Positions 4,917 to 53,469 of a DNA stretch of 64,000 bases are shown in pieces. Every line of letters begins with the position of its first letter. Positions within the stretch are counted from its first letter, which is position 1. The stretch is taken from positions 248,001 to 312,000 of the forward strand of contig CDROCS010001053.1 of NCBI GenBank assembly GCA_977020255.1, in the 5' to 3' direction. The DNA comes from Obrimoposthia wandeli (Eukaryota). Under the pieces are notes generated by a model, which saw only the letters and a program-made list of their open reading frames with translations, was not told the origin of the DNA and did not search any database. Made by a program: the position numbers and the translations under genes.

Positions 4917-5010
4917 AGTAGGTGGATGTATCCGGTCTAATCCACACACCCCCACTGTCCTTTAAAAGCGTGCATGTGTAATTTTGAAATTTTGTGTATG
5001 TGTGTAGGAG
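4917..5010 (+). repeat. Polinton terminal inverted repeat
   Basis: AGTAGGTGGATGT(A/G)TCCGGTCTAATCC-[C-rich]-CTGTCCTTTAAAA..GTGCATGTGT. The same motif occurs at the 14916, 21045, 22943 and 58579 ends; 5'-AG...CT-3' termini are typical of Polintons. Confidence 0.9.
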
Positions 5011-5293
5011 AAAAAATTCAAAAAGCATCGAATAATAGGGGGGGGTGGGGTCTCCCCCATATTTTTATTTTACTTTGAAATTTATCTCAAAAGTGGTTAG
5101 AGAAGACCACGGGAATCCATATTGACCGCGGCAGCTTATTGCAGACGAGATTTCAAATATATTACTACTATTTTTATGAAAGATATTAGATTACTACACG
5201 TTAAATATTTAGGTCAGATTTATAAGAATAGATCTTTATAATTTAGAGGAGAAAAAACAAAATACGAGTCAAAATTATTTTTCAAAACATTTA

Positions 5294-5697
5294 TTAAACA
5301 TAAAACAACATGTCGGCTTCACTCAAAGTCCAGAGAGGCTGCATTTTCCCGTCATCAGCAAAATATCCATTGAAACGTATTGAGATATTCCATAGTTCTT
5401 CATCTAGAATTGGAGCAATCAAATATCCTAGATCATCTTTAAATCCAGACTAGGATCAGTTTCAAGCTGGAAACAATTCCCTTCATATATATAATCAGGA
5501 ATGTAAAATCCCAAAATATTTTTCAATTGATCAAAATCAGATGTTGTTAAAATTTCGATAAGATAGTTATTCTCCAATTTAGATATTTTCACAGGATTCA
5601 TAACTCGTATAATTTGATGCCTCTTTAATATATTACATAGTTTTCCTTTTGAAATTCTTTCTGGATAATAAAAATTTGCTACACATATCTTATCCAT
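5294..5697 (-). pseudogene. Polinton accessory ORF (~135 aa), frameshifted copy; unknown function
   Basis: MDKICVANFYYPERISKGKL..., frameshift near 5430, C-terminus ...LWNISIRFNGYFADDGKMQPLWTLSEADMLFYV. Further copies at 13960-14364, 21490-21660 (C-terminal part) and 44762-44997 (partial). Confidence 0.7.
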
Positions 5698-5842
5698 TCT
5701 AAAATAAGAAACTGATTAAAAACAATGTTTATGAAAAAAATACATATAAGATACATATAAGACACAAATATTTAAAAAAAAACTGATTATTAAATGAAAG
5801 AAACATAGTAAAACCGATTACAATTTATTACACGCAAAAAAG

Positions 5843-6325
5843 TTAAAACATAGAAATATGAGCTCGTTCAATTTTCCACATAGGCAACTTTGTTCCCATT
5901 TCATCTTTCTTGTAACCATAAAATCGAATTGTTACAGTCCATTGCTTCTTTTTTGGAAACGCATCAATATCAACATATCTTCCATAGTCATCTAGAAATG
6001 CTTCATCGGGCCCTCGGATAAAAAATTCGTTCTTATTGAAAGTAAAATTCGGAACTGCCTTTTCAACTTTCTGTTTAAGATATTGAAAATCTGGTTTTTG
6101 AATATTTGATAGATAGTAGCTGAACTTTCTTCTTTCAATTGTCACAGAATTTACTAAAGCAATCAGTTGAGCCTTCTTCAAGAATCTGATTTTGTATTTT
6201 AAATATTGTTTCACTTCTTCATACATATCCTTATCCGATTCTTCAAACATTTCCGAATCTTCGTCCCCGCTTAATATCCGTTGGCTATCCTCCATCGTTG
6301 ATAATTGTCTTTGATATGAATGCAT
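5843..6325 (-). CDS. Polinton accessory protein, 160 aa, unknown function
   Basis: Intact ATG-to-stop ORF. Also intact at 45175-45657; the copy at 13332-13814 has one internal stop. Confidence 0.75.
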   Translation of the reverse strand: MHSYQRQLSTMEDSQRILSGDEDSEMFEESDKDMYEEVKQYLKYKIRFLKKAQLIALVNSVTIERRKFSYYLSNIQKPDFQYLKQKVEKAVPNFTFNKNEFFIRGPDEAFLDDYGRYVDIDAFPKKKQWTVTIRFYGYKKDEMGTKLPMWKIERAHISMF

Positions 6326-6339
6326 TTACTGTGATTTGT

Positions 6340-6575
6340 CCTCCAATGGTGCATTCTTTTATACTAATTTCTAACAAAGACATGAATCTCATTGGTTAAT
6401 ATAACTAAAGCATTGAATTTGATTGGACTAAATCCATATTAAAAATCAAATTTGATTGGAAGCAATATATCATCTAATTATAATAGGTTTGCAAAATAAT
6501 TACAAGAAATGTGCAATAAAAAAGCAGGTTCATAACATATATAAAGAAGAATTTACAGAATACAATTTTAGTCTA
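6340..6575. promoter_or_regulatory. Putative bidirectional Pol II promoter between ORF160 and the TBP-like gene
   Basis: CCAAT/ATTGG at 6343, 6391, 6422 and 6455; TATATAAA at 6538; ATG at 6576. Confidence 0.45.
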
Positions 6576-7062
6576 ATGAAACTCGTAAATATAAATTATA
6601 AAGATGATGTTTCGTACTTAGCATTCAATGAATGGAAGCCGAGACAATATGTGAAAATGTTTGATGATTTTACAGTTGTTATTTTCCTCGCATGTTAGTT
6701 TTTATTTTATTTTCATATTGAATTATTTTAGGAAGTTGTCGTGTTATGGGATACAAAATACCTTTGGATGAGTTCAATTTACCACTTGGAATTCAAATCA
6801 GTGCCATACTTCCAATCACAATTTCACCTAATATCGGGAAACAAATAAATCTTTATAAAATTGCAGAAAAATGAAAGAAGAATGCATGTTTAAACCGGAG
6901 ATTTTTCTTGCTTTCAGATATTTGAAGTTTAAACCGCTTTGTGTAAATATATTTTCCAGTGGTAAAGTTATGATATTGGGATTGAAAATTTTTGATTATC
7001 CAGACATTGTTGATATGATTTTAGAAAATATATCTTATTACATCTTGTTATCTTTTCTATAA
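6576..7062 (+). pseudogene. TBP-like gene, copy 1 (frameshifted; 38-nt intron 6694-6731)
   Basis: Homologous to the intact copy at 12614-13110. Contains VNIFSSGKVMILGLK; 1-nt deletions near 6685 and 6870. Confidence 0.75.
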
Positions 7063-7081
7063 ACAAACCCGTTTAAACTTA

Positions 7082-7372
7082 TTGTTTCAAAAGAATAATA
7101 CTATAAATACAGACAATGAAGTAAAGCGTCTTGTCAATGAAATATTTTCTGGAAAAATTAAGGGTAAACAAATTGTATCAGAATTAAAACATAATGATAT
7201 AACAAGAGATAACATTGAAATATTGGTTAGATCACACGTTATTCGAGAATTTAGAAATCGTACACAAATAAATAAAATTATAGCCAAATATTCATTAATT
7301 AATTTTTTGTATTTCATCTACAATAGCTCTAACATTGTACATTTCAATAAGGAAATTTCTATGATAATATAA
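7082..7372 (+). CDS. Polinton accessory ORF (~90 aa), unknown function
   Basis: Conserved between the TBP-like gene and the ATPase in three copies (also 12313-12585 minus and ~46423-46705 plus). Confidence 0.55.
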   Translation: MFQKNNTINTDNEVKRLVNEIFSGKIKGKQIVSELKHNDITRDNIEILVRSHVIREFRNRTQINKIIAKYSLINFLYFIYNSSNIVHFNKEISMII

Positions 7373-7401
7373 ACAATATTAAAAATGAAAGAGTATATGC
7401 A

Positions 7402-8049
7402 ATGGAGCTAAATAATAATGCTGTATTTCAAATAGTTTGTCCCAGTGGAAGTGGAAAGACACATTTCGTATGTAAATTGTTGCAAAATGAATCTCTTTTC
7501 AAATCTAGTTTCAAAAATATTTATTGGCATCATGGTGGAGGAGGGGAAAGCGGATTAACCAAAACAGAAGTTTGCAAGTTGAAGGGAATACAATTTATTG
7601 AAGGATTTGATGCAAATTGGTGTGAAAGATTGAAAAAATAAGATGTAATAATAATTGATGATTTGTATCAGGAAGCTAACAAGGAATCGGATTTTAATAA
7701 TTTATTTACGAAGATTGCAAGACATTGTGAAGTAACAGTTATATTTATCACTCAAAATCTTTTTCACCAAGGAAGTCACCATAGAACAAGAAATCTTAAT
7801 GTACATTACATAGTTTTATTTAAAAATCCTAGAGATCAAACAGTTGTAGATTTTGTGGCCAGACATGCATTTCCCCAAAATAAGAACTTTCTAGTTGATT
7901 CATTCCACGATGCTGCTAAACAAGCACATGGGTATATATTTATTGACTTTACACAAGCTTGTACAGATGATTTACGTATTTTAACCGACATATTTAATTT
8001 GAAGGCAGTAACTGTTTATAAACAAATAGAGAACAATTATAAAAAATAA
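7402..8049 (+). pseudogene. A32/FtsK-like genome-packaging ATPase (internal stop)
   Basis: Walker A (C)PSGSGKT, Walker B VIIIDD, and ARH..VTVIFITQNLF...NVHYIVLFKNPRD. A TAA at 7639-7641 splits the ORF. Confidence 0.9.
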
Positions 8050-8515
8050 ATTTACAATTCATTTTAAGAAGTTGATAGTAAAACGTAAAGCAAAGCCTAA
8101 GAAATCAAAAAAAAAGAATCATTAAGAAAATAGAAGTGAAAAAATTAGTCAAATCTGTAGTTAGAAATAAAAAAAACTTAAATGGCTTCGAATATAAACA
8201 ATATTTAAATTGAACCTTTTTTATTAAAATGAAGAAAATACATGTTGTAATATGTTGTAGATGATTTATTGGAAGTTTTGTATAATATAGTTTTGGGTCG
8301 AGTAAAAGTTGGAAATCGGAAAAATATTTTAAAGAAATATAGAAAAACTCTTCTAGATATTGCTAATGTAAAAAGTAAAAAAAGGAAACGAAATATTATT
8401 CTTAAACAGAATGGTGGTTTCATAGGGGCTGTTATTCCAGTTGTTGCTTCAATTATCAGTAGTATTATAGCTGCGACACGTTCATAAACAATTATTTATA
8501 AAATCAGTTAAAGAT

Positions 8516-9602
8516 ATGGGTGCTAACCCTTCTTTACCTAAATTTAAATTATCTTTCTATTCAAATTGTTGTAATGGAGAAGATATGGTTCAACCCAAAA
8601 GATCCAATTGGCTACACCAGAGTTTCAAAATTAGCAAAAAGAACAAAACAAATATACAAGAAAACGTAGAAATGGCTGAGCAACCAGTTAGCCTACAGCC
8701 TGAACAAGCCGATGAGAAGAAGGTTTCCAACTAGAGCTTACAATACCAGCGGTCCTAATAATTTATGGCAAATGGATTTGATGGAGATGATCCCATATTC
8801 TTCCATTAATAAGGGATATCGATATATTTTAACATGTATTGATGTATTTAGCAGGTTTGCTCGTGCAATTCCAGTTAAAGCAAAGTCTTCAATAGCTATG
8901 CTTGAAGCCATTAAAGAAATATTAAAAGAGGACATTCCACAAAATATGCAAACTAATTTAGGAAAGGAATTTTATAATAAGCAAGTTCAATCTTTATTTA
9001 AACAAAATAATATAAATCACTACTCTGTGTTTTCACAGTATAAAGCAGCAGTAGTAGAAAGATTTAATCGTACTTTAAGAGATCGAAAAAAACAGTATTT
9101 CACAAAAGAAGGAAATAAAAAATGGATCCAAGTTTTACCTAAAATAATACATGCCTATAATCACTCGGAACATAGAGGTCTCAAGGGAAGGAGACCTGTT
9201 GATGTTACTAATAAAAATTCTATGGATATTTGGATGAACAGGAATAAAAAAGAAAATATTAAAAAAGCTAAATATAAGAAAAACGAATATGTCCGAATTT
9301 CGAAAATTAGCTGTACTCCATTTATTAAAAACTTTGATCAGAATTAGAGCGATGAAATATTTTGTATAAGTAAAATTGATCAAAAGAGTAATCCAATAAT
9401 GTATACTATTAAAGATGCTGACAATAATATCGTTCACGGTAAATTTTACGAGCAAGAACTACAAGTAATATCAAATAAACCTAGCGTTTTCCGTATTCAA
9501 AAAATATTAAAAACTAAGGGTGCCGGTAAACATAAATAATACTATGTTAAATGACATGGTTATTCAGATCCAACTTGGATATCAGCATCTAATATAATGT
9601 GA
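8516..9602 (+). pseudogene. int: Retroviral-type (rve) integrase with C-terminal chromodomain-like tail
   Basis: WQMDL...YILTCIDVFSRFA, KEFYN, KAAVVERFNRTL. Degraded tail YYVK*HGYSDPTWI; frameshift and stops. Confidence 0.9.
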
Positions 9603-10369
9603 AGTCTATGTATATGGTTTTACCTAGTAACGGGTGTCCGAAGACTCAACCAGATAATGACGCTAGTAGCTTTATTATCGATTGGGAAAATTCTATAAAT
9701 CTTCAAGGAGAATGGGAAGCGGCTTTAACAGAATTTTCCTTTTATTATTCTCCAATTACTATTGGAAAAAACTCATATATTTCGTTTACTAAAGAAGTTG
9801 ATCATGAAAAATCAATTGAAGTTGTGATTGGGTTTGATAGTAAAGGAAAATTCTATTACAATTTTATAGATAAAGAAGTGAAAGTAATATATGAAAAAAA
9901 CAAAGTCAGATTTAAAAATCGACTAAAACATTTTTTAAAACCTATTCAAATTATATTTGGATCTGATAGAGAAGCTCTTCAATTCGGTTTTGACAGTGGA
10001 CATGTAGTAGGTATGAAGAGATCTGATATATCCTCATCTAAATCGTTTAAAAATGTTCCTGATAGAGTAACAAAAGTGTTGTTACTTGAATCGAGACCAA
10101 AGACTGTAGTGGAACTGAAAATGTTTTCAAAAGATTATAAAATAGATAGTGAAGTGAATTTCTGTAAATTAATACAGAAGGAATGTAGTGAATATTTCGA
10201 TAAATGTGTAACATTAAAAAATAATAAAATAACGTTTACAGTAAAGAGCAATATAATACGAGTTTTATTTGATGATAAACTCGCTAAAAACCTTGGTTTA
10301 AACAGAAATGCCTTTAAAACCCATACAATAAAAACCATAAAAGCTAAAAATAATGCAGAACTTTCTGTA
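9599..10369 (+). pseudogene. Minor capsid (penton) protein, N-terminal part, truncated at the palindrome centre
   Basis: MYMVLPSN...FIIDWENSINLQGEWEAALTEFSF matches the Polinton minor-capsid N-terminus pattern (LPSN...L.GEWEVAL.E). Confidence 0.75.
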
Positions 10370-10951
10370 TTCCTTCTGTATTAATTTTCATAAATCCACT
10401 TCACTATCTATTTTATAATCTTTTGAAAACCTTTTCAGTTCCACTACAGTCTTTGGTCTCGATTCAAGTAACAACACTTTTGCTACTCTACCAGGAACAT
10501 TTCTAACCGATTTAGATGAGACTATATCCCGTTTATTACGAGCTACTGTTTGTTCACTATCAAAACTGAATAGAAGAGCTTCTTTTTTAGATTCAAAGTT
10601 AATTTTAATAACTTGAAGATATTTTAATCGATTTTTAAATCTGACTTTGTTATTTTCAAATATTACTTTCACTTCTTTATCTATACAATTGTAATATAAT
10701 TGTGCTTTACTATCAAACCCGATCACAACTTCAGTTGTTTTTTCATGATCAACTTCTTTTGTAAACGTAATATGTGAGTTTTTTCCAATAGTAATTGGAG
10801 AATAATAAAACGAAAATTCTGTTAAAGCCGCGTCCCATTCTCCTTGGAGATTTATAGGATTTTCCCCATGGATAATAAAGTTACTAGCATCATTATATCG
10901 TTGAGTCTTCGGGCATCCGTTACTAGGTAACACCATATACATAGACTTCAT
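10369..10951 (-). pseudogene. Minor capsid N-terminal part, right-arm copy
   Basis: ORF 10388-10951 is colinear with 9599-10184. Confidence 0.75.
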
Positions 10952-11627
10952 ATTATATTAGATGCTGATATCCAAGTTGGGTCTGAACAACCATGCCATT
11001 TAACATAGTATTGTTTATATTTACTGGCACCCTTAGATTTTAATACTTTTTTAATAGAAAATTTAAATTTAGGTAAAGAAGCGTAAGCATCCATATCTTT
11101 AGCTGTTTTTGAAATAATTGTTTATGTACGTGTCGCAGCTATAATACTACTGATAATTGAAGCAACAACTGGAATAACAACTCCTATGAAACCACCATTC
11201 TGTTTAAGAATAATATTTCGTTTCCTTTTTTAACTTTTTACATTAGCAATATATAGAAGAGTTTTTCTATATTTCTTTAATATAATTTTCGATTTCCAAC
11301 TTTTACTCGACCCAAAACTATATTATACAAAACTTCCAATAAATCATCTACAACAAAAGATGGAAATGCTTTAAGAATAATCATTCTCTTATGAGAAGAG
11401 GCTTTGACTAAAGCTTTAAAATAGGGTATGCTCTTTGTATTTTCTTCATTTTAATAAAAAAGGTTCAATTTAAATAGTGTTTATATTCGAAGCCATTTAA
11501 GTTTTTTTTATTTCTAACTACAGAATTGATTAATTTTTTCGCTTCTTTTTTCTTAATGATTCTTTTTTTTGATTTCTTTGGCTTTGCTTTACGTTTTACT
11601 ATCAACTTCTTAAAAGGCATTGTAAAT

Positions 11628-12275
11628 TTATCTTTTATAATTGTTCTCTATTTGTTTATAAACAGTTACTCCCTTAGAATTAAATATGTCTGTTAAAACA
11701 CGTAAATCATCTGGGCAAGCTTGTGTAAAGTCAATAAATATATACCCATGTGCTTGTTTAGCAGCATCGTGGAATGAATCAACTAGAAAGTTCTTATTTT
11801 GAGGAAATGCCTGTCTGGCCACAAAATCAACAACTGTTTGATCTCTAGGATTTTTAAATAAAACTAGGTAATGTACATTAAGATTTCTAGTTCTATGGTG
11901 ACCTCCTTGGTGAAACTGATTTTGAGTGAGAAATATAACTGTTAATTCACGATGTCTTGCAATCTTTGTAAATAAATTTTTAAAGTCCGATTCCTTGTTA
12001 GCTTCCTGATACAAATCATCAATTATTATTACATCTTCTTTTTTCAATCTTTCACACCAATTTGCATCAAATCCTTCAATAAATTGTATTATCTTCAACT
12101 TGCAAACTTCTGTTTTGGTTAATCCGCTTTCCCCTCCTCCACCGTGATGCTAATAAATATTTTTGAAGCTAGATTTGAAAAGAGATTCATTTTGCAACAA
12201 TTTACATACGAAATGTGTCTTTCAACTTCCACTGGGACCAACTATTTGAAATACAGCATTATTATTTAGCTCCAT
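11628..12275 (-). pseudogene. Packaging ATPase, right-arm copy
   Basis: GPSGS*KT (TGA in Walker A); downstream ORF 11628-12098 carries VIIIDD and TVIFLTQN. Confidence 0.88.
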
Positions 12276-12613
12276 TGCATAAACTCTTTCAATTTTAATA
12301 TTGTTTATATTATCATAGCAGTTTCTTTATTGAAATGTACAATGTTAGAGCTATTGTAGATAAAATACAAAAATTAATTAATGAATATTTGGCTATAATT
12401 TTATGTATTTGTGTACGATTTCTAAATTCTCGAATAACGTGTGATCTAACCAATATTTCAATGTTATCTCTTGTTATATCATTATTTTTTAATTCTGAAA
12501 AAATTTCTTTATCCCTAATTTTTCCAGAAAATATTTCGTCGGCAAGCCGATCCACTTCATTGTCTCTATTTATAGTATTATTCATTTAAAACAATAAGTT
12601 TAAACGGGTTTGT

Positions 12614-13110
12614 TTATAGAAAAGATAACAAGATGTAATAAGATACATTTTCTAAAATCAAATCAACAATTTCTGGATAATCAAAATTTTTCAATCCCAA
12701 TATCATAACTTTACCACTGAAAAATATATTTACACATAACGGTTTAAACTTCAAATAACTGAGAGCAGGAAAAATTTCTGGTTCAAACATGCATTCTTCT
12801 TTCACTTTCTCTGCAGTTTTAAAAAGATTTATCTGTTTCCCAAGATTAGCCGAAATCGTGATTGATTGTATTGCAGTGATTCGAATTCCAAATGGTAAAT
12901 TGAACCCAAGCATTGGTATTTTGCATCCCATAACACGACAATTTCCTAAAAGAATTCAATATGAAAATAAAAAAACTAACCTGTAGGAAAAATAACAACT
13001 GTGAAATTGTCAAACTTTTCCACATATTGTCTCGGTTTCCATTCATTGAATGGTAAGTGCGAAACATCATCTTCTGTTCTACCTTTATAATTTATATTTA
13101 CGAGTTTCAT
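12614..13110 (-). CDS. TATA-binding-protein-like protein, 153 aa, two exons (13110-12981; 12945-12614)
   Basis: Removing a 35-nt GTTAGT...TTTAG intron gives an uninterrupted ORF. Repeat 1 is FTVVIFPTGNCRVMGCK; repeat 2 is FEPEIFPAL...VNIFFSGKVMILGLK (compare TBP YEPELFPGL...LLIFVSGKIVLTGAK). Confidence 0.8.
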
Positions 13111-14495
13111 TAGACAAAAATTGTATTCTGTAAAATCTTCTTTATATATGTCTGAACCTGCTTTTTTATTGCACGTTTCTTGTAATTATCTTGCAAACCT
13201 AATATAATTGGATGATATATTTATTCCAATCAAATTTGTTTTTTAATATGGATTTAGTTAACCAATGAGATTCATGTTTTTGTTAGAAATTAGTATAAAA
13301 GAATGCACCATTGGAGGACAAATCACAGTAAATGCATTCATATCAAAGACAATTATCAACGTTGGAGGATAGCCAACGGGTATTAAACGGTGACGAAGAT
13401 TCGGAAATATTTGAAGAATCGGATAAGGATATGTATGAAAAAGTGAAACAATATTTCAAATACAAAGTCAGATTCTTGAAGAAGGCTCAACTGATTGCTT
13501 TAGTAAATCCTGTGACAATTGAAAGAAGAAAGTTCAGCTACTATCTCTCAAATATCCAAAAACCAGATTTTCAATAACTTAAACAGAAAATTGAAAAGGC
13601 AGTTCCGAATTTTACTTTCAATAAGAACGAATTTTATATCCTAGGACCAGATGAAGCATTTCTAGATGACTATGGAAGATATGTTGATATTGATGCGTTT
13701 CCGAAAAAGAAGCAATGGACTGTAACAATTCGACTTTATGGTTACAAGAAAGATGAAATGGGAACAAAGTTGCCTATGTGGAAAATTGAACGTGCTCATA
13801 TTTCTATGTTTTAACTTTTGCGTGTAATAAATTGTAATCGGTTTTACTATGTTTCTTTCATTTAATAATCAGTTTTATTTTTTAAATATTTGTATCTTAT
13901 ATGTATTTTATGTGTATTTTTTTATAAACATTATTTTTAATCAGTTTCCATATTTTAGAATGGATAAGAGATGTGTTGCAAATTTTTATTATCCAGAAAG
14001 AATTTCAAAAGGAAAACTATGTAATATATTAAAGAGGCATCAAATTATACGAGTTATGAATCCTGTGAAAATATCAAAAGTGAAGAATAAATATCTCATC
14101 GAAATTTTAACAACATCTGATTTTGATTAATTGAAAAATATTTTGGGATTTTACATTCCTGATTATATATATGAAGGAATTTGTTTCCAGCTTGAAACTG
14201 ATCCCAGTCTAGATTTTAAAGATGATCTAGGATATTTGATTGCTCCAAGTCTAGATGAAGAACTATGGAATATCTCAATACGTCTCAATGGATATTTTGC
14301 TGATGACGGGAAAATGCAGCCTCTTTGGACTTTGAGTGAAGCCAATATGTTGTTTAATGTTTAATAAATGTTTTGAAAAATAATTTTGACTCGTATTTTG
14401 TTTTTTCTCCTCTAAATTAAATAGATCTGACCGATTTTTTATCCTATAAATTCTAAAACTGACATAGATATTTAACATGTAAGGATATTTGATCA

Positions 14496-14774
14496 TCACT
14501 TTCACCCATCACCCACCGATTTTCACCCAACACCCGTCGACTTTCACCCATCACCCAACGACTTTCACTCAACACCCATCGACTTTCACCCAACACCCAT
14601 CGACTTTCACCCAACACCCATCGACTTTCACCCATCACCCAAGGAAGTCTGTGATATACACTAGTCCCGAGCCTTTCGCCCATCACCCAAGGAAGTCTGT
14701 GATATACACTAGTCCCGAGCCTTTCGCCCATCACCCAAGGAAGTCTGTGATATACAGCAGTCCCGAGCCTTTCG
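14496..14774. repeat. Subterminal tandem repeats: ~21-bp units, then three 48-bp units
   Basis: (CACCCATCGACTTTCACCCAA)n, followed by CCCATCACCCAAGGAAGTCTGTGATATACACTAGTCCCGAGCCTTTCG x3 at 14631, 14679 and 14727. Confidence 0.9.
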
Positions 14775-14916
14775 CGCCTAGAGACGCGAAAAATGTTTTT
14801 GGGATCCCCCCTGTCCTTTAAAACCATGCATTAGTGTGGAGTGAAATTTCACTCCACACACATGCACGGTTTTAAAGGACAGGGGGTGTCGATTAGACCG
14901 GACACATCCACCTACT

Positions 14917-19800: not shown

Positions 19801-22800
19801 ACCCTAACAAAATTAATTATCAAAATATAATATGTTCATCATGTGATATTTCATCAGGATCAAGTATATCAGGTAGACTATGTTCATTAGCATATAATCC
19901 TAGATATATTCTGATGGGGTTTAAAGAGAAAAACATTACATTTCAAAACAATAATGACTTATTTACACAATATTCTTCAACAACTAATACAGCAAGTTCA
20001 CCAGTAACAAACAAACAGTATTTATAATCCTTACAGATTCAACTAAATAATACACTCCTATAGACTTTAATGAGGATACAAATCTCCAATTCTTTCCATA
20101 TCATAAATATATAAACATGTGTAAAACATCAGATTGTAACCCCAAATTATCATTAATAGATTTTTTCATTTTATATCCTATTTATTTGTTTGATGTTAGT
20201 GATTAAGATGATAGGTTGTCAATAAATAATATTGATGTATATCTCCATATCACTTAATATTCGAATTTTGAAGCTACATCGTACGCTTTAATCTTAGAAA
20301 ACTAAAAAGTGAAATAGGACTCTAAAGGATGCTAAGATTTCGTTCATAGAAAATATTAAAAGGTCTATTAAATGTATAGTTTGTTTATAAATATAGATTA
20401 ATATCAAAGGTTATTGATGATAGTGTTAATAAACTTTTGATAAAGGCTTTGAAATATTGTAAACTTAATGATGATAAAATCAAATATCTAAAAAACTTTT
20501 TAATAATTGCAGAGCTTACATATTGAAAATTAAAATCTAAACAGAATATGTAAAAGTTAAAAATCGTAATGTACCATTCGTATATAATCAGAAAATAAAA
20601 ATTATATCGAATTAGCAAAATAATATAGAAAATTGTATTAAATCAGAAATCTGTAGTTAATCAAAATATCCATAAGGATATGTGTTAATGCCATTATTAG
20701 AAATTACTATTTTATCATCGAAAGGACACAAAACATTTTTATTTGTTCTGTTAGAAACATTTTTTGATAATCACTTGATATCTTTAATTATTTAAATATT
20801 TGGTTTCTTTATTAAATAATGTATTACAGATTTGCTGAAGTAAAACTTACGTTTACCATTATCACGTTTTACATTTATAATATCAAGTAGAGCTTTACGA
20901 TGTTTTTCGAGTGTAGACTTGTGTTTACCAACATTAACGTTACCTTTGACGATATTGAACAGAGTTTCAATCTATCTGTGATTAACAAAAGGTGGAAAAG
21001 ATGTCAGAATACGTAATCTATGTGAAGATTGAGTTTTCAATAGAAGTAGGTGGATGTGTCCGGTCTAATCCACACCCCCTCCCCCCCTACTGTCCTTTAA
21101 AACCGTGCATGTGTGTGGAGTGAAATTTCGTGTAGGTGTGTGGAGTGAAATTTCGTGTATGTGTGTCTTCATCCCACCCAAAGGGGGGAAGGAAGGGGGG
21201 TACCCCCCCACCACATTTTTTAAAAATTTTACCACGAATCTCAAAAGTGGTTAGAGAAGACCACGAGAATCTATATTGACCCCGGCGGCTTTTCGCAGAC
21301 GAGATTTCAAATATTACTACTATTTTTAAGAAAGATTTTAGATTAATAAATTACTACATGTTAAATATCTATGTCAGTTTTAGAATTTAGAGGAGAAAAA
21401 TCGGTCATTCTCCTCTATAATTTAGAGGAGAAAAAAACAAAATACGAGACAAAATTATTTTTCAAAATATTTATTAAACATAAAACAACATATTGGCTTC
21501 ACTCAAAGTCCAGACAGGCTGCATTTTCCCGTCTTCAGCAAAATATCCATTGAGACGTATTGAGATATTCCATAGTTCTTCATCTAGAATTGAAGCAATC
21601 AAATATCCTAGATCATCTTTAAAATCCAGACCGGGATCAGTTTCAAGCTGGAAACAATTTCCGCTCTTGCTGCTGCTTCTCCTTCGTCTCCTTCGCTCAC
21701 CACCGACGAGTATTGTCTAAGTAAGTCAATGTACTGCGCCGGTGGTGGCGTTCGCTGCTGTACTGGAGAGAGATCCCCATACAGTTGAACCTCCGTCTCT
21801 TCATCCAAATCAACGTTGTTGAAAATTGACATTATTTATTCTTGATTAATGATATTTGATTTATGAAAAATAATGAAAAGAGGTTTCCTTATATACAAAA
21901 ATAATAGACTAACCTCTTTTGTCGTCCAATGAGAGCGGGTTATTCAAATAATTTATTTGAAAATCAGTTGGCTTTTCTCAATTTTTTAACTATGTTTGAA
22001 TGCTGGAATGTCATTGGATAAAACATATTTTATTCGAAAATATAACTATTTTCTTAAGATTTTGTTGCTTAAGTTTAACGTCCAATGAAAACGTATTATT
22101 CAAAGAATTTATGGTATTTTCTTAAATTTTGTTGATGTTTGAATACATGTATATCTTTGGATTTAAAATAGTAATATTTTTTTGACTGTACATGTTTGGA
22201 TGGTATAAAAAATTCATGAACTCATTTAAGGTCAAGTTAAGGTCATGACCTTATGAGGTCATTACAGGTCATCATGAGGTCAAGGGTACAAAGTTGTCTA
22301 GGTCATCATGAGATCAAGATCATTTATGGTCATTTAAGGTCATCGTGAGGTCAAGGTACAAAGTTGTCTAGGTCATCATGGGGTCAAGATCATTTAAGGT
22401 CATGATGACTAATTTGATGACTCACCAAATAAAAATGAAAATTATTTCGAATTTATGTAGTTGATTATTTAAAATTTTTTGCGACCCTATATATGTATCT
22501 TTCTTATAAATTCTTATAAAGAAAATTTTTTTTACCACCTTATATATATGTATGGATATAAATTTTTATAAGAAAAATTTTTTCGCCCCCCAGGCCGCGA
22601 AAAATTTTTTTTCGCGAGCCTGTATGTATTACTCGATGATCCACCGCGGACCCGGAGAGCGCGCGTGGCCCGCGGTGGCCCAATGAGCGCAGCGAGTTGA
22701 TCCACCGCGGGCCCAGAGGGCACGCTTTGGCCAATTTACGGCCTCTCAGGACCTTAATCAAAATTTTGGGAGCATTATAAGTTTTTTTAAATTTAAAGGG

Positions 22801-25800
22801 TGTTATAAGGAGTTAATTTTTTTTTTGAGTGTTTGGGAGGGGGGGTAGAAATTTTTCTACACACCTGCACTAAATTTCACTCCACACACATACACGGTTT
22901 TAAAGGACAGTAGGGGGGATTAGACCGGACACATCCACCTACTAATAGAGTTTCAAAGTATGGAATAACGGAAGGGATTTTGATGTCAGACACCAAGTTT
23001 TATAGATTGTTTATGCTCGGCTCAGCCATTGGTCAAAAGCATCACCTTTTTTCGTCAACTTATACCATTTATTCGGCCTTTTCTTTGTTTTTTCTTCTAT
23101 TTCTAACAGATTTATTCCGTTTAACAACTTTTTTACTTTAGCATTGAATTTGCTGTTTTGTAACCCTGTATAACGACCTGATTATTCTTATCTCTAAACA
23201 ACTGATTCTCACTTTTACAGACAGGATTATCAGGTTTCCTTTTAAAGCCTGTCTGTGTGGCAAAAAAATACATATTATTAAATGACATAATTACTCATTT
23301 TAAAGTCTTAGCTTTTTTTAGCACAACCCCGGAAGAGAAAATAGTTTTATAGTTTATACCATTAAATATGATATTTCTTACTCGTAGTATAAGAAATATT
23401 TTACAATATGAATATGTAATAAAGCGGTTTCAGCATGTACAACATGTTTTTAAATATCCACTTGGTAAAAATGCTACTTAAACTTATTTAATAAAATTAA
23501 ATTGATTCGATCTCGATTGTAATAACGTTTCAACAAATTGATCTGACGAGTATCTATTTAAGCATCAATTTCATCATTACTAAGGTGATATCCAACAATA
23601 CATATATTTTTATTCTCATACTAGATTTCATACATCCCTATGTACGAGAAACTCTCTCTCGCATAGTCTTAATAAAGTCAAGACGATATATTACTTTCAT
23701 ACAAAAACAATACCAATATGAACTAATTCAAGTATAGACATGCAACAACAAAAACGATAATGTAAGAATTTCAATATGCTCAAATCATTATTACGTACAA
23801 CTACTTTATCAGGTGAAGTTGTATCAAAATTTATAACATAATCATGGTCTTCAACAACCACTGGTTTATTAGAAACACTGATTTGTATAATGAATAGACA
23901 TAAAGGAAACACTTTCATAGGTTTTATCACAGTGTTACCAATTTGCTAATGAGCATATACAAGTAATCTCATATTTTAATAAATTTGATGCTGTCTTGAT
24001 AATTCCTGCTTTGCTAATTCTTATTTTTGCCCTAAACCCGTATAACTTCTACGTTATGATATTAGTGTAGCCTATTCGTTTTTAAAATCTTAATTTTTAA
24101 CCCTTATATCAGTTTAATGAATTCGTCTAATCCTATATTTTTCACCATTTCGCCACACATAATGCGCAATAAATTCAGATAACTTCAGTGAATCTTGAGT
24201 ATTAGGAGTAGATCAAAAGTATTAATCAAAACAAGTTTGAACTCAAAATCTCAATTAATGACATTATCATCAAACATTAGGATTCTTCCGAGTAGATCAT
24301 GAGCATTAATCATAAAATATTAAAGTGTCATTACCCGCTCCTTAGCTCAGTAGACCTAGACCCTTGACACAAATATTGACCCCCTAGACTCATGAGTCAT
24401 GAGCTATGAGTTTAGCACTTGTCAACACCCCACCTAATAAGAGTTCGACTTATAGTTCATAGCTCATGACTCAGAGGGGTTCTGCTTAGCTAATGAGCTA
24501 GATATGACACTTTACTCTTATTTCATGGAATCTGCCTAGGTCCTTGTCGAATATGTGGTGTTGTAATTAAGAACGAATTGATACGTACCAAGTTCATGGG
24601 GAAGCTCCTCGCACAAAACCGCGATTGATAGACTTAGCCCTGTGAAAATGTCACGAGAGAAAGCAGCCCCGATCGATAGTCCATCGATGAAATTGTGCAG
24701 TGCATCACCAAATATGATCATCCAAGCGATGGGAGCTACTTTCTGGAGAGAAGAGAACATAAAATATCTCGATCAATCTCTTCTTTGGACCATTCTGGGC
24801 CTTGTCAAAAATAAATGTGAACAAAAATTTTAGGATGTTATCACTTATACACTGTTAACACAAGAACGCGCCATGCTTTTATGAATACGTTCTTTAATCA
24901 AATCGGGTTTTAAATTTAGCTGTGAAACGTGTAAATCAAAAGCAACGCGTTTTATAAAGTATTTAATTTTTTAAGATTGCCAAAATTCTTTTGTTATAAG
25001 AAAGACTTCTCCGCATTTATTTTGGAACAGGAAATTTCCATTCTTTAATTAGATTTTGCATTTAATGAGCTATGAAACGTGTAAATCGTAAATGTAAACG
25101 TTCCATTGAGTGTTTTTTTAAATTGCATACATATGATGCGTCAAAGGATAGAAACTTTGCTCTCATCTTGGAATGGTTAAGAAATGATCGTCTAATTATA
25201 ATTGAAAGCATTCTTTCAAACCCAGGTAAGATTTTTTATATTCTCTCATGATTTTAAAAATGGTAAAAAAAATATTGAAATGAATCATATTAAGAAAATA
25301 ATTAGGAGATTTAATGTTCAAGATCATACTTAAAATCAAGTTAGCTAAATATTATTACACTTTTTACTGCTAATTGTAAACTGTTGTGAAGTTTAAATGC
25401 TAATATCTCAAAAATTTGATATTATTTCTTCGATTTGGATACTTATACTGTCAGTTGTTTTAGTTTATTTTTCTAGAAATTTTTACAATTTGGTTGCAAC
25501 TTTAAAACTTGAAATTGTTGAATCAGTATATGTATTTTAGACTCTATTTGAGCATTTATCAACAAATCAACTAGTTCAATTGTATAGTTTTTAAGTTGTT
25601 TTTCTTTTATAGATTATTGTTTCTCTAAATTTTGCATTTACAAAGATTGAAGTATACTTCAAATTTTTATAAGATATCTTATTCGCTATAGATGTATTAA
25701 TAACCTGGGTAAATCCTGATTCCAGGAGCCCAGTTTCATCAAATGAATCTCGATAATTACTATTTTACAGTGGATTTTTTAAAATTATTATTACTTTATA

Positions 25801-44298: not shown

Positions 44299-44760
44299 TG
44301 TTGGGGTTTCTATATGAAACTGTTTCTAATATATATCTTCTGAATGGAGGGCCCCAACGTGAGTTCTATAGAAGCAGGACTTGTAGATGTTTGTGGCCTA
44401 CTTAATGTTATGCTTGCCTGTCTGAATTCTTAGCTGAAGGTCTGTTGTCTCTAGATTTGAAGGGTCTGTAATAAAGCTGTCTAGTTGTAGGAAATCGTTT
44501 ATTACTAAGCACACTAAATTAAAACGTCTAAGAACGTTCTAAAAATTACAATACAATTCCTAAGACTTCCGTAAGTCTCTACACAAGAAGGGATGATCCA
44601 CGTAACGATTTTATTTTAGGGTTGGTTGGTCACTAGAGTCTTTACTCTAAAATGTGGCAAGGTTAAAGTAGTAGGTTTTTTGGAGCGCTGGTTGCTCTAA
44701 AATAGGAGTAGTTTAGAGAGCTGGTGCTCTAAAATAGGAGTTGTTTAGAGAGCTAGAGCT
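44299..44760. repeat. Truncated LTR related to 2624-3313
   Basis: TGTTGGGGTTTCTATATGAAAC...GGAGG.CCCCA.CGTGAGTTCT is shared. It ends abruptly at the Polinton junction and has an internal ~32-bp duplication at 44690-44756. Confidence 0.7.
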
Positions 44761-47700
44761 CGAAACAATTTCCTTCATATACATAATCAGGAATGTAAAA
44801 TCTCAAAATAACTTTCAATTGATCAATATCAGATGTTGTTAAAATTTCGATGAGATATTTATTCTCCACTTTTGATATTTTCACAGGATTTATAACTCGT
44901 ATAATTTGATGCCTCTTTAATATATTACATAGTTTTCATTTTGAAATTCTTACTGGATAATAAAAATGTCCTACATATCTCAGAAGAGGATCCATTCTAA
45001 AATAAAGAAACGGATTAAAAAACAATGTTTATAAAAATTGCATATAAGATACATATAAGATACAAATATTAAAAAAATAAAACTGATTATTAATTGCTAA
45101 ATGAAAGAAACATAGTAAAAATAAATAAAACCGATTACAATTTATTACATGCAAAATGAAAGGAAAAAAAACTGTTAAAACAAACGGATATGAGCACGTT
45201 CAATTTTCCACATAGGCAACTTTGTTCCAATTTCATCTTTCTTGTAACCATAAAGTCGAATTGTTACAGTCCATTGCTTCTTTTTCGGAAATGCTTCAAC
45301 ATATATTTCTCTTCCATAGTCATCTAGAAATGCTGCATCGGCTCCTCGGATATAAAATTCGTTCTTATTGAAAGTAAAATTTGGAACTGCCTTTTCAACT
45401 TTCTGTTTAAGATATTGAAAATCTGGTTTTTGAATATTTGATAAATAATAACTGAACTTACTTCTTTCAGTTGTCACAGGATTTACTAAAGCAATCAGTT
45501 GAGCCTTCTTCAAGAATCTGACTTTATATTTGAAATATTGCTTCACTTCTTTATACATATCCTTATCTGATTCTTCAAACATATCTAAATCTTCATCACT
45601 GCTTAATTTACGTTGGCTATCGTTCATCATTGATAATTGTCTTTGATATGAATGCATTTATTATGAGTTGTCCTCCAATGGCATATTATTTTATACTAAT
45701 TTGTTAAAAAGACATGAATTTCGTTGGTTAATATAACTAAAGCATTGAATTTGATTGGACTAAATCCAAAATTAAAAATCAAAATTATTTGGAAGAAATA
45801 TATCATCCAATTATAATAGGTTTGCAAGATAATTACAATAAATGTGCAATAAAAAAGCAGGTTCATAACATATATAAAGAAGAATTTACAGAATACAATT
45901 TTAGTCTAATGAAACTCGTAAATATAAAATATAAAAATGAATTTTCGTACTTACCATTCAATGAATGGAAGCCGAGACAATATGTGAAAATGTTTGATAT
46001 TTTACAGTTGTTATTTTCCCCGCATGTTAGTTTTTATTTTATTTTCATATTGAATTATTTTAGGAAGTTGTCGTGTTATGGATGCAAAATACCTTTGGAT
46101 GACTTCAATTTACCACTTGGAATTCAAATCAGCGCCATACTTCCAATCACAATTTCATCTAATATCGGGAAACAAATAAATCTTTATAAAATTGCAGAAA
46201 AATGAAAGAAGAATGCATGTTTAAACCGGAGATTTTTCTTGCTTTCAGATATTTGAAGTTTAAACCGCTTTGTGTAAATATATTTTCCAGTGGTAAAGTT
46301 ATGATATTGGGATTGAAAAATTTTAATTATCCAGACATTGTTGATTTGATTTTCGAAAATATATTTTATTACATCTTGTTATCTTTTTTCTATAAACAAA
46401 CCCGTTTAAACTTATTGTTTCAAATGAAGAATACTATAAATACAGACAATGAAGTGGATCGTCTTGTCGACGAAATATTTTCTGGAAAAATTAAGGGTAA
46501 ACAAATTGTATCAGAATTAAAAAACAATGATATAACAAGAGATAACATTGAAATATTGGTTAGATCACACGTTATTCGAGAATTTAGAAATCGTACACAA
46601 ATAAATAAAATTATAGCCAAATATTCATTAATTAATTTTTTGTATTTTATCTACAATTGCTCTGACATTATACATTTCAATAAAGAAACTTCTATGATAA
46701 TATAAATAATATTAGAATGAAAGAGTATATGTAATGGAGCTAAATAATAATGCCGTATTTCAAATAGTTGGTCCCAGTGGAAGTTGAAAGACACATTTCG
46801 TATGTAAATTGTTACAAAATGAATCTATTTTCAATTCTAGTTTCAAAAATATTTATTGGCATCATGGTTGAAGAGGGGAAAGTTGATTAACCCAACAGAA
46901 ATTTGCAAATTGAAGGAATTAAATTTATTGAAGGATTTGATGCGCATTGGTGTGAAAGATTGTAAAAAAGAAGGTGTAGTAATAATTGATAATTTGTATC
47001 AGGAGGCTAACAAGGAATCGGACTTTAATAATTTATTTACAAAGATTGCAAGACATCGGGAAGTAATTGTTATATTTATCACTCAAAATATTTTTCACCA
47101 AGGAGGTCATCATATAACAAGAAATCTTAATGTACATTACTTAGTTTTATTTAAAGATCCTAGAGATCAGAAAGTTGTAGATTTCGTAACCAGACAGGCA
47201 TTTCTCCAAAATAATAACTTTCTAGTTGATTCATTTCATGATGCTACTAAACAAGCACATGGGTATATATTTATTGACTTTACACAAGCTTGCCCAGATG
47301 ATTAACGTATTTTAACAGACATATATAATTCTTAGGGAGTAACTGTTTATAAACAAATAGAGAATAATTATAAAAAATAAATTTGCAATGCCTTTTAAGA
47401 AGTTGACAGTGAAACGTAAACTTAAAATAAAGGCAAAGCCTATGAAATCAAAAAAGGAATCATTAAAAAAAGAAATGAATAAATTAATCAATTCGGTAGT
47501 TCGAAATAAAAATAAACTTGGATGGCTTCGAATATAAACAATATTCAAATTGAACATTTTTTAAATGAAGAAAATACAAAGAAGCATACCCTATTTTAAA
47601 GCTTTAGTCAAAGCCTCTTCTCATAAGAGAATGATTATTCTTAAAGCATTTCCATCTTTTGTTGTAGATGATTTATTGGAAGTTTTGTATAATATAGTTT

Positions 47701-48720
47701 TGGGTGAAGTAAAAGTTGGAAAACGGAAAAATGTATTAAATAAATATAGAAAAACTCTTCTAGATATTGCTAATGTAAAAAGTAAAAAAAGGAAACGAAA
47801 TATTATTCTTAAACAGAATGGTGGTTTCATAGGAGTTGTTATTCCAGTTGTTGCTTCAATTATCAGTAGTATTATAGCTGCGACACGTACATAAACAATT
47901 ATTTCTAAAATCAGCTAAAGATATGGGTGCTAAAACTTAAATTTTCTTTCTATTCAAATTGTTGTAATGGAGAAGATATGGTTCAATCCAAAAGATCCAA
48001 TTGGCTACACAGGAGTTTCAAAATTAGCAAAAAGAACAAAACAGAATTACAAGAAACCGCAGAAATAGATGAGCGATCAGTTAGCCTACAGTTTGAACAA
48101 GCCGATAAGAAAGTTTCCAACAAGAGCTTACAAAACCAGCGGTCCTAATAATTTATGGCAAATTGATTTGATGGAGATGATCCCATATTCTTCCATTAAT
48201 AAGGGATACCGATATATTTTAACATGTATTGATGCATTTAGCAGGTTTGCTCGTACAATCCCAGTTAAAGCAAAGTCTTCAATAGCTATGTTTGGAGCCA
48301 TTAAAGAAATATTAAAAAAAGTACAATCCGCAAAAATCTTCACACTGATTTAGGAAAAGAATTTTATAATATGCAAGTTCAATCATTATTGGAACAAAAT
48401 AATATAAATCAGTTCCGGTGTTTTTGCAGTACAAAGCAGCAGTAGTAGAAAGATTTAATCGTACTTTAAGAGATTGAATAAGAAAGTATTTCACAAAAAA
48501 GGAAATAAAAAGTGAATCCAATTTTTGCCTAAAATAATACATGCACATAATCACTCTGAACATAGAAGTCTTAAGGAAATGAGACCTGTTGATTTTTTAC
48601 GAAAAATACATAAAAAAAAACAGAGAACAATAAGATACAAATATTTATTAAATCAAAAAGAAAAAATTAAGTACAATAAATTTGTGACATATAAATTCAA
48701 ACATACAAAAACAATCATTC
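44757..48720 (+). mobile_element. Third copy of the Polinton left-arm gene block (ORF135 partial, ORF160, TBP-like, ORF90, ATPase, pX-like, integrase partial); no TIR
   Basis: Colinear with 5465-9200: ORF160 45175-45657, TBP-like from 45909, ATPase 46734-47380, integrase from ~47922. Confidence 0.9.
47565..47894 (+). CDS. Basic 109-aa protein ending in a QNGG|F hydrophobic tail (adenovirus pX/mu-like core protein candidate)
   Basis: Intact ORF ...KSKKRKRNIILKQNGGFIGVVIPVVASIISSIIAATRT. Damaged copies at 8229-8487, 11122-11449 and ~20830-22990. Confidence 0.7.
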   Translation: MKKIQRSIPYFKALVKASSHKRMIILKAFPSFVVDDLLEVLYNIVLGEVKVGKRKNVLNKYRKTLLDIANVKSKKRKRNIILKQNGGFIGVVIPVVASIISSIIAATRT

Positions 48721-51700
48721 AAGTGAAATCTGGATATCGGTGACCGGATTTTTTCTACGCAGTTTCTCTTATCGTCATTGCTACTCATTGCGATCTTACT
48801 CATATCTACAGAATAGAGATGGGGAATTATTGAACTAATGCGTTGTTGTTTCACTTGTTCACTAACCCCACTCTCATATGTAGCTAAATAATTCACATGG
48901 CGTAGCGCAATCTGCTTGAGGCTAATTCTTTTTGCTCTTATTCGGGACTTTCCGTCTATAGTTTCTAAGCTATATGATTTAGGGCGTAAAAATACCCATT
49001 GCTTATATATACAAACACCCTTACTCTCATCTTTAAACGTGCTTATCGTAAATAAAGGATTGTTTATAGGAAATTTTGATGTGTCTAAAAACCCATCCGA
49101 AATCATTGTTGGCAACAGTGGAGCTAGCACATATACATGATCACACTTTAGTAAAAAAAACTATCAGTGTCACCAGCAATTATTCGAATATCGCAATTAA
49201 ACTGACCTATATATTATTTAATTAAACATATTGAAGCTCATACATTCTTAACTTACTCAAATCCTGAACTGCCTGACCTATATAACTAGGACGATCTAAA
49301 ACGACAGTTTCCATATTTAATAAAACAGCTATTATGTTAGTGTTAATTTCCATAGTCTTACAGAATTGTGCCTTTATACAATAAGTAACAAACTTTTGTG
49401 ACATAATACAAATACGGAGGCTAATTCTTTTCATTAAATTCTCTATTAGCTTACCAAACAGATAATTAACCTTCAATTTCTAATATTCCCGCTCGAAATC
49501 ATTTGCAGCATTGGCCCTTTTTGCGGAATTATTCTCAATATGCTTGGCAAAAACCGTATTGCTCTGTGTACGTAATCTACTTTCATATCAAGTCTTATGT
49601 ACAATTGAATCAATATGAAATGCACAACATAATGCTTTTTAGGGTAATGGGTCAGAAGTAGTTTTGGTTGTTTACTACAAATAAGGCATTCCTTTCGTGG
49701 AGCTAAGGGGAGGTCGTCTAGTTTATCGTGTAGGTCTTCAGAAATGGATACATCCACATCTATCAAATAAGCAAAGCTACTACAACTTAAATCCTTAAAT
49801 GAGAGCTCAGAAATTATAATCTCTAACTCTAACCGGTCAGTTATTTAAAAAATCTCCACATATAAAAATTGGGACATGGTCCAACATAAAGATTATTCAC
49901 ATCAATGTATGAAAGCTCACAATCATTCACTGCATCAACTTTGTGCTCGTACTAAAATGTCATCCCTCCTCTGATGCCTTCACAAAATAAGGAGTACATC
50001 TCTGGATCTTGAACGAACTTCACTTCGATCTCATGTGGTGATGAACTAGAGGAAGTAAATACTTGAGAGCGCTCGCGAATGATAATCCTAGGAAGGAAGA
50101 AATGAAAGATTTTTTAAAAAGAATTGCTACAGAATATTACAGAAAATCAATTACTTAAAATGATTACTAAAATGAGATTTTACTAATAAAATTTACCAGA
50201 AATCGAGAGAAAATTGAGTGGCTCCAGTGAATCGTCGTCGATGGCCTTCTTCCGGAAAGTTTTAAAAAACATCGACAGAGATGTATACGTCGATCTTCAG
50301 GTACAGGAGCATGTAATCCCAAATATATATATAGATGTATTCTTCTCAAACCTTCAGTGCTTGTTCATACTGAACATCTTTGATAGCTTCACTCTATTTA
50401 GGCGGTAGATTTGTGATTGACCGGAGAGCAGTCTCTGAAGTTGTCATGTGATACGGGAATATGCCCGTATATGAATATGAATATGAGAAGACATAATGCG
50501 TAAGTGGAATAACATCCATATAACTAATGAGTTAATCAAGAGAGCTATTTAGAAACTGCAGCAAATCTATAAATTGAATACTCATTCCATGAACGTGCAC
50601 GATCATAGCCTGAAATTTCTCAGTTGATTGGGTTATGATTGAAATATCTCAATGCGAAAACTGAGTTATTGCATGCTTAAGAATATGGTGCATATCATAT
50701 CCTCTTAAGTTATAAAAAATAACAAGAAAAAAACGATTTATTCAACGTGATAAATTACACTTTGAAATTGATACTTCAGGTATTCACGGGTCATAAGGTC
50801 GTGATCCCTGACCTTGTTGACGCAGCGCTTGTTACACAGATAATAAGTAGTAGCTGCATGGAAACTAGCTACCTGCTCCGGTGTCAGCGAGCGCATTACA
50901 GCAAACAGCATGATCTCGATACCATCGAAGAACAACATCCTTAGCCAATTCCTCCAATTTGTTAAGGAAATACACCATACAAGATTCCCCTGTGTAAAAA
51001 GAGTAGTCTTGTGTAAATCCATTCAAAGCAGCTCTGATTGGAGACATCATCATACAGAAGATGAATCTGATGATGAATCCCATGCGGCAGTAAAACTGTT
51101 GCGAAGTTGACATAAACGACAAACGGAAGTGATACCGTTTTACTGAAATCAGTAAAAGCTATATATTTATTCGAAGGCATCTAATAGAGAGTACTTGGCA
51201 TAACTAACTGGATTCCTAAAGCCATGGAGACCCTTATGGCATCAGGTTAAGTGGCAGGTCCCTTATTTCTAAAAATAAACAGAATAATGTTCTAAAATAA
51301 GAAGATTTACCGGTGTTCTCACTCTCAAATCGCGGTAAATTCCCCAGTCACATCGGCATATCGGCCTCATCATAGAAGAGCTCTGCGAAAAAGCACTCAT
51401 ATGGATGAGGTCTTGTAGGGTTACTTTTAAATAAATTCTTAAATTGTACAGCTAAAATACTGTATAAAAAGCAGAAAACGTTGGAACAATACTGTACGTT
51501 CATCACAGCGTGTAAAAGTTGGAATTGGAATATAATTTCGTCCCTGAAGATAATTCATTGTAGTTGTTTTTGTGACAATAAATGATATTTCATGGAAACG
51601 GGATACTTGCCAATTACTCCCATTCTGAGAGTAATTCTTAATTTTTAGATTAAGAGATGCAATTCCATCGGCAATAAACTCACTAATAAATGGAAATCCC

Positions 51701-53108: not shown

Positions 53109-53129
53109 GATAAAAATTTCTTGTTTCTA

Positions 53130-53450: not shown

Positions 53451-53469
53451 TCGTTGAAACTAAACTATA

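Follow-up and report, generated by a model that had tools for sequence, protein, structure and literature searches.

A high-copy Polinton of Obrimoposthia wandeli carries a gene for a small TATA-binding protein (TBP) of a family under purifying selection, and most of the virion genes of this and related elements are preceded by a YATAAAC box that hardly ever occurs before the TBP gene itself. The protein, here called the mini-TBP, is probably a one-protein early-to-late switch for the virion genes, similar in principle to that of herpesviruses. Our evidence comes from a 64,000-nucleotide stretch of contig CDROCS010001053.1 (positions 248,001 to 312,000; hereafter the window), from other copies in the same genome, and from related metagenome loci.

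A TBP-Like Gene with a Predicted Intron

The gene lies on the minus strand of the window, from an ATG at 13110 to the TAA stop that closes exon 2 at 12614. Exon 1 (12981–13110; 130 nt, or 43 codons plus 1 nt) encodes most of the helix-less N-lobe and aligns with the N terminus of intronless relatives, and exon 2 (12614–12945) encodes the end of the N-lobe and the full C-lobe with its acidic TFIIB stirrup; a predicted GT–AG intron of 35 nt in phase 1 (12946–12980) separates the two, all on the minus strand. The unspliced frame hits a stop directly after exon 1, and the joined exons give a protein of 153 aa, with which intronless relatives align across the predicted junction. The gene span, the 35-nt GT–AG segment, and the 153-aa product agree with a first-pass annotation, made from the sequence alone, which had also claimed homology to TBP. 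The homology is borne out by the match of exon 2 alone to Pfam PF00352 (42.8 bits, E 4.6e-11, cut-off 22.9), by matches of the same exon to TBP chains in the PDB, and by the predicted fold of a relative (see below).

Among four Polinton families of this genome, the TBP intron measures 35–40 nt across the 21 copies of the present family and 37 and 39 nt in two others, and the fourth family is intronless. In metagenome relatives the protein is a single ORF in 69 of 80 loci, the rest being partial (9), frameshifted (1), or interrupted (1, L093) by a 40-nt GT–AG segment at the same codon and in the same phase as the intron of this family. The 37- to 40-nt introns of three other families occupy that codon with sequences unrelated to this family's intron. 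Intron conservation, which the first-pass annotation had proposed as a check, thus holds for one codon in four families, and in 12 of the 21 copies of this family both exons are open and the GT–AG ends present. With these ends, a restored frame, and a position common to families, the 35-nt segment is well supported as an intron, its splicing being a prediction from sequence. The alternative, that the segment stays unspliced and the TBP gene of this family is a frameshifted relic, could draw on the remaining 9 of 21 copies, which are broken, and on the roughly neutral divergence of close copies. It sits badly with GT–AG segments that differ in length and sequence at one codon in four divergent families, with copy L048, whose 40-nt version leaves both exons open, and with the 47-nt length of a host TBP intron, and we give it almost no credence.

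Four sequencing runs (one sample, type unrecorded) had a DNA-like flat depth over genes and spacers and are uninformative on expression; three joints were listed in them, none at the predicted TBP intron. As to a single or repeated gain of the intron, the four intron-bearing TBP rows were scattered in a free tree, and their grouping in a single clade was not rejected (p-AU 0.84); as the constrained tree scored above the free one, the tree search was incomplete.

The Element and Its Copies

The placement of the gene within a Polinton, another claim of the first-pass annotation, is established by copies with core genes, termini, and 6-bp target duplications. The gene order of the element is left terminus, orfL1, orfL2, TBP, a 90-codon ORF, ATPase, PZ, integrase, minor capsid, major capsid, and protease, followed, in copies fetched from the genome, by pPolB on the opposite strand. 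Sister copies matched the Pfam families DNA_pol_B_2 (E 5e-26), rve (E 3e-13), and Pox_A32 (over the cut-off), and the rve integrase domain was detected in the window itself. The protease gave a weak Peptidase_C5 match, below the cut-off; in this family its homologue is encoded between the capsid and polymerase genes. A capsid check returned only a weak DJR-like match (E 0.014) in a related family, and the minor and major capsid genes are putative, named from gene order and from motifs (N-terminal in the minor capsid). Termini start with AGTAG; AG-starting inverted repeats and 6-bp target duplications were seen in two deleted derivatives, and these, not a full-length copy, are where both termini were found together. 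One is a 3,165-bp non-autonomous derivative (L013:8747 to L014:1911) that keeps orfL1, orfL2, TBP, and the 90-codon ORF; the other, at 21045–22943 of the window, is a 1.9-kb non-autonomous derivative with both termini and a 6-bp target duplication. A first look for TBP gene DNA in the genome gave 2,017 candidates, and the 40 that were scored were all 97–100% identical; the TBP gene sits inside a high-copy Polinton.

The copy described here is a partial Polinton (14916 to about 10370) lying head-to-head with a second partial copy. Its left terminus (14365–14916, minus strand) has 5′-AGTAG at 14916 and subterminal tandem repeats, and the paralogous orfL2 and orfL1 (13332–14364, plus strand) point away from TBP, with one stop each in this copy. 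The second partial copy (4917–10384, plus strand) extends from the left end to the minor capsid gene and includes an integrase at 8582–9410; a third lies at 44732–48605 (plus strand). The first-pass annotation had listed element copies of the TBP gene starting at 6576, 13110, and 45909. All three starts were found as claimed, but the genes at 6576–7062 and 45909–46395 are broken in exon 2, where the frame runs for no more than 46 and 37 codons, respectively.

The region 4917–14916 as a whole forms a 10-kb imperfect palindrome of two left halves joined at the minor capsid gene (about 10370–10384), and no matching 6-bp duplication was found at its flanks. Elsewhere in the window, decayed remains of a different Polinton family (polymerase, protease, capsids, integrase) and a right end from the TBP-bearing family occupy 48771–56285 and 61021–64000, and Gypsy-type retroelement pieces occur at 1434–1736 and 56568–57239. 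The orfL product is a conserved domain of about 115 aa, often duplicated, seen in 25 of 86 loci scanned and mostly beside the helix-less TBP. A fragment of it had no match in the Atlas, and its profile against the PDB gave a best E of 0.2 and no family match; it might be a TBP partner or have a single-strand DNA-binding fold, conceivably an OB fold. In relatives (L066, L067, L077, L085, L092, and others) orfL has apparent GT–AG introns of 43–46 nt, and short introns may, judging from these sequences, be a mark of early genes in this lineage; none caught the eye in virion genes. A small ORF before the integrase (8516, plus strand, and 11094, minus strand) is likewise preceded by a YATAAAC box of its own. 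In most families its product starts with Met-Gly and contains a Cys-Cys motif, a pattern that suggests a lipid-modified virion protein.

The element shares with described Polintons/Mavericks (adintoviruses) pPolB, the rve integrase, the A32 ATPase, an adenain-like protease, AG termini, the 6-bp duplication, and two putative capsid genes. Unlike them it has a TBP gene, YATAAAC boxes, and spliceosomal-type introns, none of which is described in the Polinton papers searched. The terms TBP and TATA had no occurrence in PMC11161782, PMC10748475, PMC11131425, 10.64898/2026.06.19.733378, or 10.1101/2025.04.19.649669, a search lying outside figures, Repbase, subscription papers, and bioRxiv supplements. 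The one prior mention found is a "TBP" label in the legend of Fig. 5 of Starrett et al. (2021, PMC8502044; preprint 10.1101/697771), which concerns a MELD virus with an adintovirus-like PolB. The likeness, in that an element related to Polintons has a gene labeled as TBP, is known from the legend entry only; the article passages searched contained no TBP analysis, promoter, or intron, and its supplement text had no hits for TBP or TATA.

Fold and DNA-Contacting Residues

For the fold we used an intronless relative, P0001, which is 51% identical to exon 2 and stands in for the window's own protein. Its model (pLDDT 96.3) has a complete C-lobe and an N-lobe of strands only, with no helix in residues 1–79. 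It aligned with TBP in 5fur_A over 153 residues (Z 13.0, rmsd 2.8 Å; best non-TBP Z 6.0), Foldseek also paired it with TBP (E 4e-9), and in the Atlas P0001 matched TBP clusters only. The model thus predicts a two-lobe TBP saddle from which the N-lobe helices H1 and H2 are missing. Canonical TBP has both helices in both lobes, and the alignment has gaps at the N-lobe helices. Of the two TBP half-repeats recognized in the first-pass annotation, both are present, the first being strongly remodeled and lacking both helices. Deeper-branching members such as L126 retain sequence at both N-lobe helix positions, so the loss is graded.

Residues were compared across 58 family members, with positions in the family alignment given by yeast TBP numbering. 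The TATA-intercalating phenylalanines, which the first-pass annotation had singled out for checking, are conserved in part: the equivalents of F116, F190, and F207 are kept in 58 of 58 members, but the F99 position is Pro in 57, leaving three intercalating Phe rather than four. On the DNA face, the changes V71N (54 members), V122R (57), T124M (57), N159S (53), V161T (53), and L205N (58) recur throughout. Judging by yeast mutants, V122R would weaken ordinary TATA binding, a point against promoter recognition by this protein. We assume that the N-lobe meets the 7–8 end of the box, which is the end where YATAAAC leaves the consensus. TBP kinks DNA at steps 1–2 and 7–8, according to PMC10005294. 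The glutamates of the C-lobe stirrup are almost invariant (E186 equivalent 55/58, E188 equivalent 58/58), and these two acidic positions are given as TFIIB contacts in PMC7221094.

Distribution, Phylogeny, and Selection

A profile search returned 47 clusters at a threshold of E ≤ 1e-30; relaxing it to 1e-10 raised the number to 352, ordinary TBPs included, and all 70 aligned relatives matched PF00352 (E ≤ 0.01). A Polinton core gene was present on 39 of 81 TBP loci and on 29 of the 38 loci of at least 3 kb. The helix-less TBP is a widespread, mostly intronless accessory gene of a Polinton lineage; the first-pass annotation was right that the element brings its own TBP, and the gene occurs in many other elements as well. 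Among viral collections, IMG/VR gave no relative with P0001 or A2 as query, one canonical-type TBP (L143) with A3, nothing with the ATPase alignment, and one weak match with the capsid; a phage collection gave no match. Four Polinton-like contigs came out of a scan of prokaryote genomes: the first encodes a TBP of the present type, another a TBP of a different type, and two are incomplete. These contigs (L174–L177) are in records titled bacterial metagenome-assembled genomes and are probably mis-binned eukaryotic DNA. L175 encodes, at 11568–12713, a full-size divergent TBP with four Phe in a different Polinton, and this protein groups apart from the helix-less family.

In a phylogeny of the kind that the first-pass annotation had called for, the 58 family rows separated from 13 eukaryotic, 9 archaeal-like, and 3 other viral rows with an SH-aLRT of 99; this was a quick search (LG+G4, no bootstrap), and an earlier tree had the same split. 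The cellular side of the tree also holds the two TBPs sampled from IMG/VR. We rejected a recent capture of the host TBP, given that the family stands apart from all cellular rows and that the two host TBP introns seen both fall in the C-lobe. The placement of the partial host TBP differed between trees: one put it with flatworms (83), the other beside a mollusc and a brachiopod (94). Two host TBP genes form a pair in divergent arrangement, and the host has several diverged paralogues of TBP as well, of which two lack introns (L033/L034 (G000:C238), L035/L038, L036, L037).

Selection, also on the list of proposed checks, was measured between related elements, where dN/dS was 0.10–0.48 in 12 measurable pairs and 4 further pairs were saturated. 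Close genomic copies were near neutral (pN/pS 0.5–2.3, few changes), as expected after insertion. By these sequence comparisons, the gene is the TBP of a distinct Polinton lineage under purifying selection.

A YATAAAC Box before Virion Genes

The TBP-bearing copy has YATAAAC(A) boxes starting at 12618, 12309, 11660, 11485, and 11126, 32–40 nt before five ATGs, all on the minus strand. The first (12611–12618) overlaps the TBP stop codon and stands 33 nt before the 90-codon ORF (12313–12585), which is present in 11 related metagenome loci and has no Pfam match. The second (12302–12309) is 34 nt before the ATG of the A32-type packaging ATPase (11628–12275), which is broken by stops and aligns by tblastn at 92% to a copy hitting Pox_A32 over the cut-off. 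Next come a box (11653–11660) 40 nt before a 51-codon basic ORF (11620–11465), a box (11478–11485) 36 nt before the PZ/protein X-like gene (about 11449–11125; broken, with a weak Adeno_PX match below the cut-off in another copy), and a box (11119–11126) 32 nt before the small ORF at 11094, behind which the integrase is deleted. A further box, at 11019, stands 68 nt before the ATG (10951) of the putative minor capsid gene, whose truncated 5′ part completes the segment 10388–11019 and has no Pfam match. The TBP gene itself has a canonical TATAWAWR box (TATATAAA; 13141–13148, minus strand) 38 nt before its ATG, a candidate early promoter, with CCAAT-type words farther upstream near 13207–13230.

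We scanned 150 nt upstream of projected gene starts, with near-duplicates dropped, and compared the sense strand with the antisense strand and with shuffles; since the elements are related by descent, motifs they have in common are not independent events in the counts that follow. YATAAAC was found on the sense strand before 23 of 27 ATPase genes (shuffle mean 1.4) and 11 of 12 major capsid genes (shuffle mean 0.5), as well as before minor capsid (8/10), orfR2 (7/9), PZ (5/8), integrase (9/18), and protease (2/9) genes. On the antisense strand it never occurred before the virion-gene starts scanned, including those of the ATPase and major capsid, with shuffle means of 0.5–1.4 overall. It preceded the TBP gene in 1 of 54 cases only, even where a co-oriented gene lies upstream, and there the canonical TATAWAWR was found instead in 23 of 54, compared with 7.5 in shuffles. 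An unbiased 7-mer scan ranked ATAAACA first (62 of 93 regions vs. 4.2). Over the 73 kb of 15 cassette stretches, the density of YATAAAC was 1.44 per kb in sense and 0.095 in antisense, and 36 ORF starts lay 30–44 nt behind 106 sites; at the same spacing, control motifs gave 1 start for 82 YATAAA[AGT], 6 for 163 AATAAA, and 5 for 148 control sites. The sites are spread over two reading frames and stretches beyond long ORFs (33, 36, and 37 sites), so that protein sequence does not account for the box.

The box could instead be a poly(A) or termination signal of the upstream gene, its link with the TBP being a coincidence of common ancestry. TATAAA and CATAAA are minor poly(A) signal variants, and ORF stops do cluster near the box, with 22 at 0–14 nt and the one at 12618 in the window. 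Such a signal would not explain the need for C at position 7, the many boxes well within upstream coding sequence, the tighter tracking of start codons than of stops, or the absence of the box before TBP despite a co-oriented upstream gene, and we consider this origin very improbable.

In the elements compared, the box also varied with the type of TBP. In L174, a divergent element with the same TBP type, it precedes 7 of 7 virion genes, whereas it precedes 1 of 10 genes in L175, whose TBP is of the full two-helix type, and 0 of 7 in L176, an incomplete relative of L175, a contrast drawn from one element and one fragment. ATAAGA occurs before 3 genes in L175 but has no strand bias (5 and 5). 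A TBP-less Polinton was sought as a control, and all four families examined in this genome carry a TBP gene.

A more serious contender is that YATAAAC is a core promoter for host TBP, a TBP paralogue, or a Forkhead factor and that the element's TBP competes for TFIIB or damps transcription. We take ATAAACA to fit the Forkhead consensus as well; the commoner form GTAAACA is not enriched (2/27 before the ATPase), and the box is one-directional, both of which count against this reading. The host does have additional TBP paralogues, and the retained TFIIB glutamates would suit a decoy too. A cellular TBP was crystallized on a C(−25) TATA variant, by the title of PDB 1qn3, and TATAAAcg retained 27% activity in a plant assay in PMC10005294, from which it follows that host TBP can use a box with C at position 7. 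A decoy leaves unexplained six fixed DNA-face changes alongside three kept Phe, and also why the box is missing from the element that has the other TBP type. The decoy function that the first-pass annotation had offered as an option is further weakened by the loss of the N-lobe helices used by cellular regulators and TFIIA-side factors. We hold this host-driven promoter to be unlikely overall. The other option in that annotation, a redirection of Pol II to viral TATA promoters, gains indirect support from the matched box and the kept TFIIB glutamates, with the amendment that the target would be YATAAAC and not an ordinary TATA.

A mini-TBP bound to YATAAAC might also act as a repressor or DNA-bending factor that silences integrated virion genes or organizes packaging DNA, with no preinitiation complex formed. 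The loss of both N-lobe helices and one Phe could block a productive complex, and Giardia TBP illustrates that a divergent TBP can adopt other DNA-binding modes (PMC12209930). The near invariance of the TFIIB-contact glutamates and the TATA-like spacing of the box speak against this, and no second activating motif stood out; repression or DNA bending is improbable, more so than a host-driven promoter.

Discussion

For the early-to-late switch that we favor, the steps we infer are as follows. Host Pol II would make the TBP mRNA early from the host-type canonical TATA promoter, and the intron would be spliced out. The mini-TBP would then bind the YATAAAC boxes before the virion genes (capsid, packaging, integrase), where its acidic stirrup would recruit host TFIIB and then RNA polymerase II, and it would avoid host regulators dependent on the N-lobe helices. 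Genes for TFIIB or RNA polymerase did not turn up among the element ORFs scanned. Counting against the switch, the protease genes and half of the integrase genes are without a nearby box, and the box has ORF stops clustered near it as well as starts.

The nearest functional parallel is found in beta- and gammaherpesviruses, whose TBP mimics (KSHV ORF24, EBV BcRF1, HCMV UL87) serve TATT late promoters, as set out in PMC12529657. In both systems a TBP-fold protein encoded by the virus goes with a short TATA-like box of non-canonical sequence ahead of virion genes, early genes having host-type promoters, and in the Polinton, too, the non-canonical box lies before virion genes and not before the TBP gene, with the early/late order presumed. 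ORF24, as depicted there, is a large, multidomain protein. It works in a complex of six factors, contacts Pol II directly, and has been modeled as TFIIB-incompatible; the Polinton TBP is a single domain of 153 aa with clear TBP sequence likeness and kept TFIIB glutamates. By this comparison, the Polinton system would be an analogue of the herpesvirus late system and not a member of it. With cellular TBP the protein shares the two-lobe saddle, the C-lobe helices, three of four intercalating Phe, and the acidic stirrup; it differs in lacking N-lobe H1 and H2 and F99, in its polar DNA face, and in its separate branch. Like Nucleocytoviricota TBPs, it has an N-lobe without host-regulator signatures, for which an escape from host regulators has been proposed, but those proteins have diverged TFIIB contacts and often come with their own TFIIB (PMC7221094).

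We see an even chance that the finding extends to a large animal Polinton lineage with the smallest private switch known, in which a TBP of about 150 residues, stripped of the helices gripped by host regulators and retuned on its DNA face, recognizes YATAAAC and relies on the host's TFIIB and Pol II to turn on the capsid genes. If so, different TBPs would be matched with different boxes in other Polinton lineages. The system would be a natural orthogonal TBP–promoter pair, a demonstration of the extent to which the TBP saddle can be trimmed and retargeted, and, after herpesviruses, a second and independent instance of an altered TBP put to use by a virus for late genes. To this the window adds an intron position common to four families and the counts of residues and spacings.

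The TBP–box pair makes the control of Polinton virion genes, and the existence of a viral life cycle in these elements, testable in a small system of one small protein and an 8-base motif. Planarian Polinton transcripts go up upon smedwi-2 knock-down, according to PMC8532177. If the switch is real, endogenous Polintons would have a defined early-to-late cascade, which would be strong evidence that they are temperate viruses.
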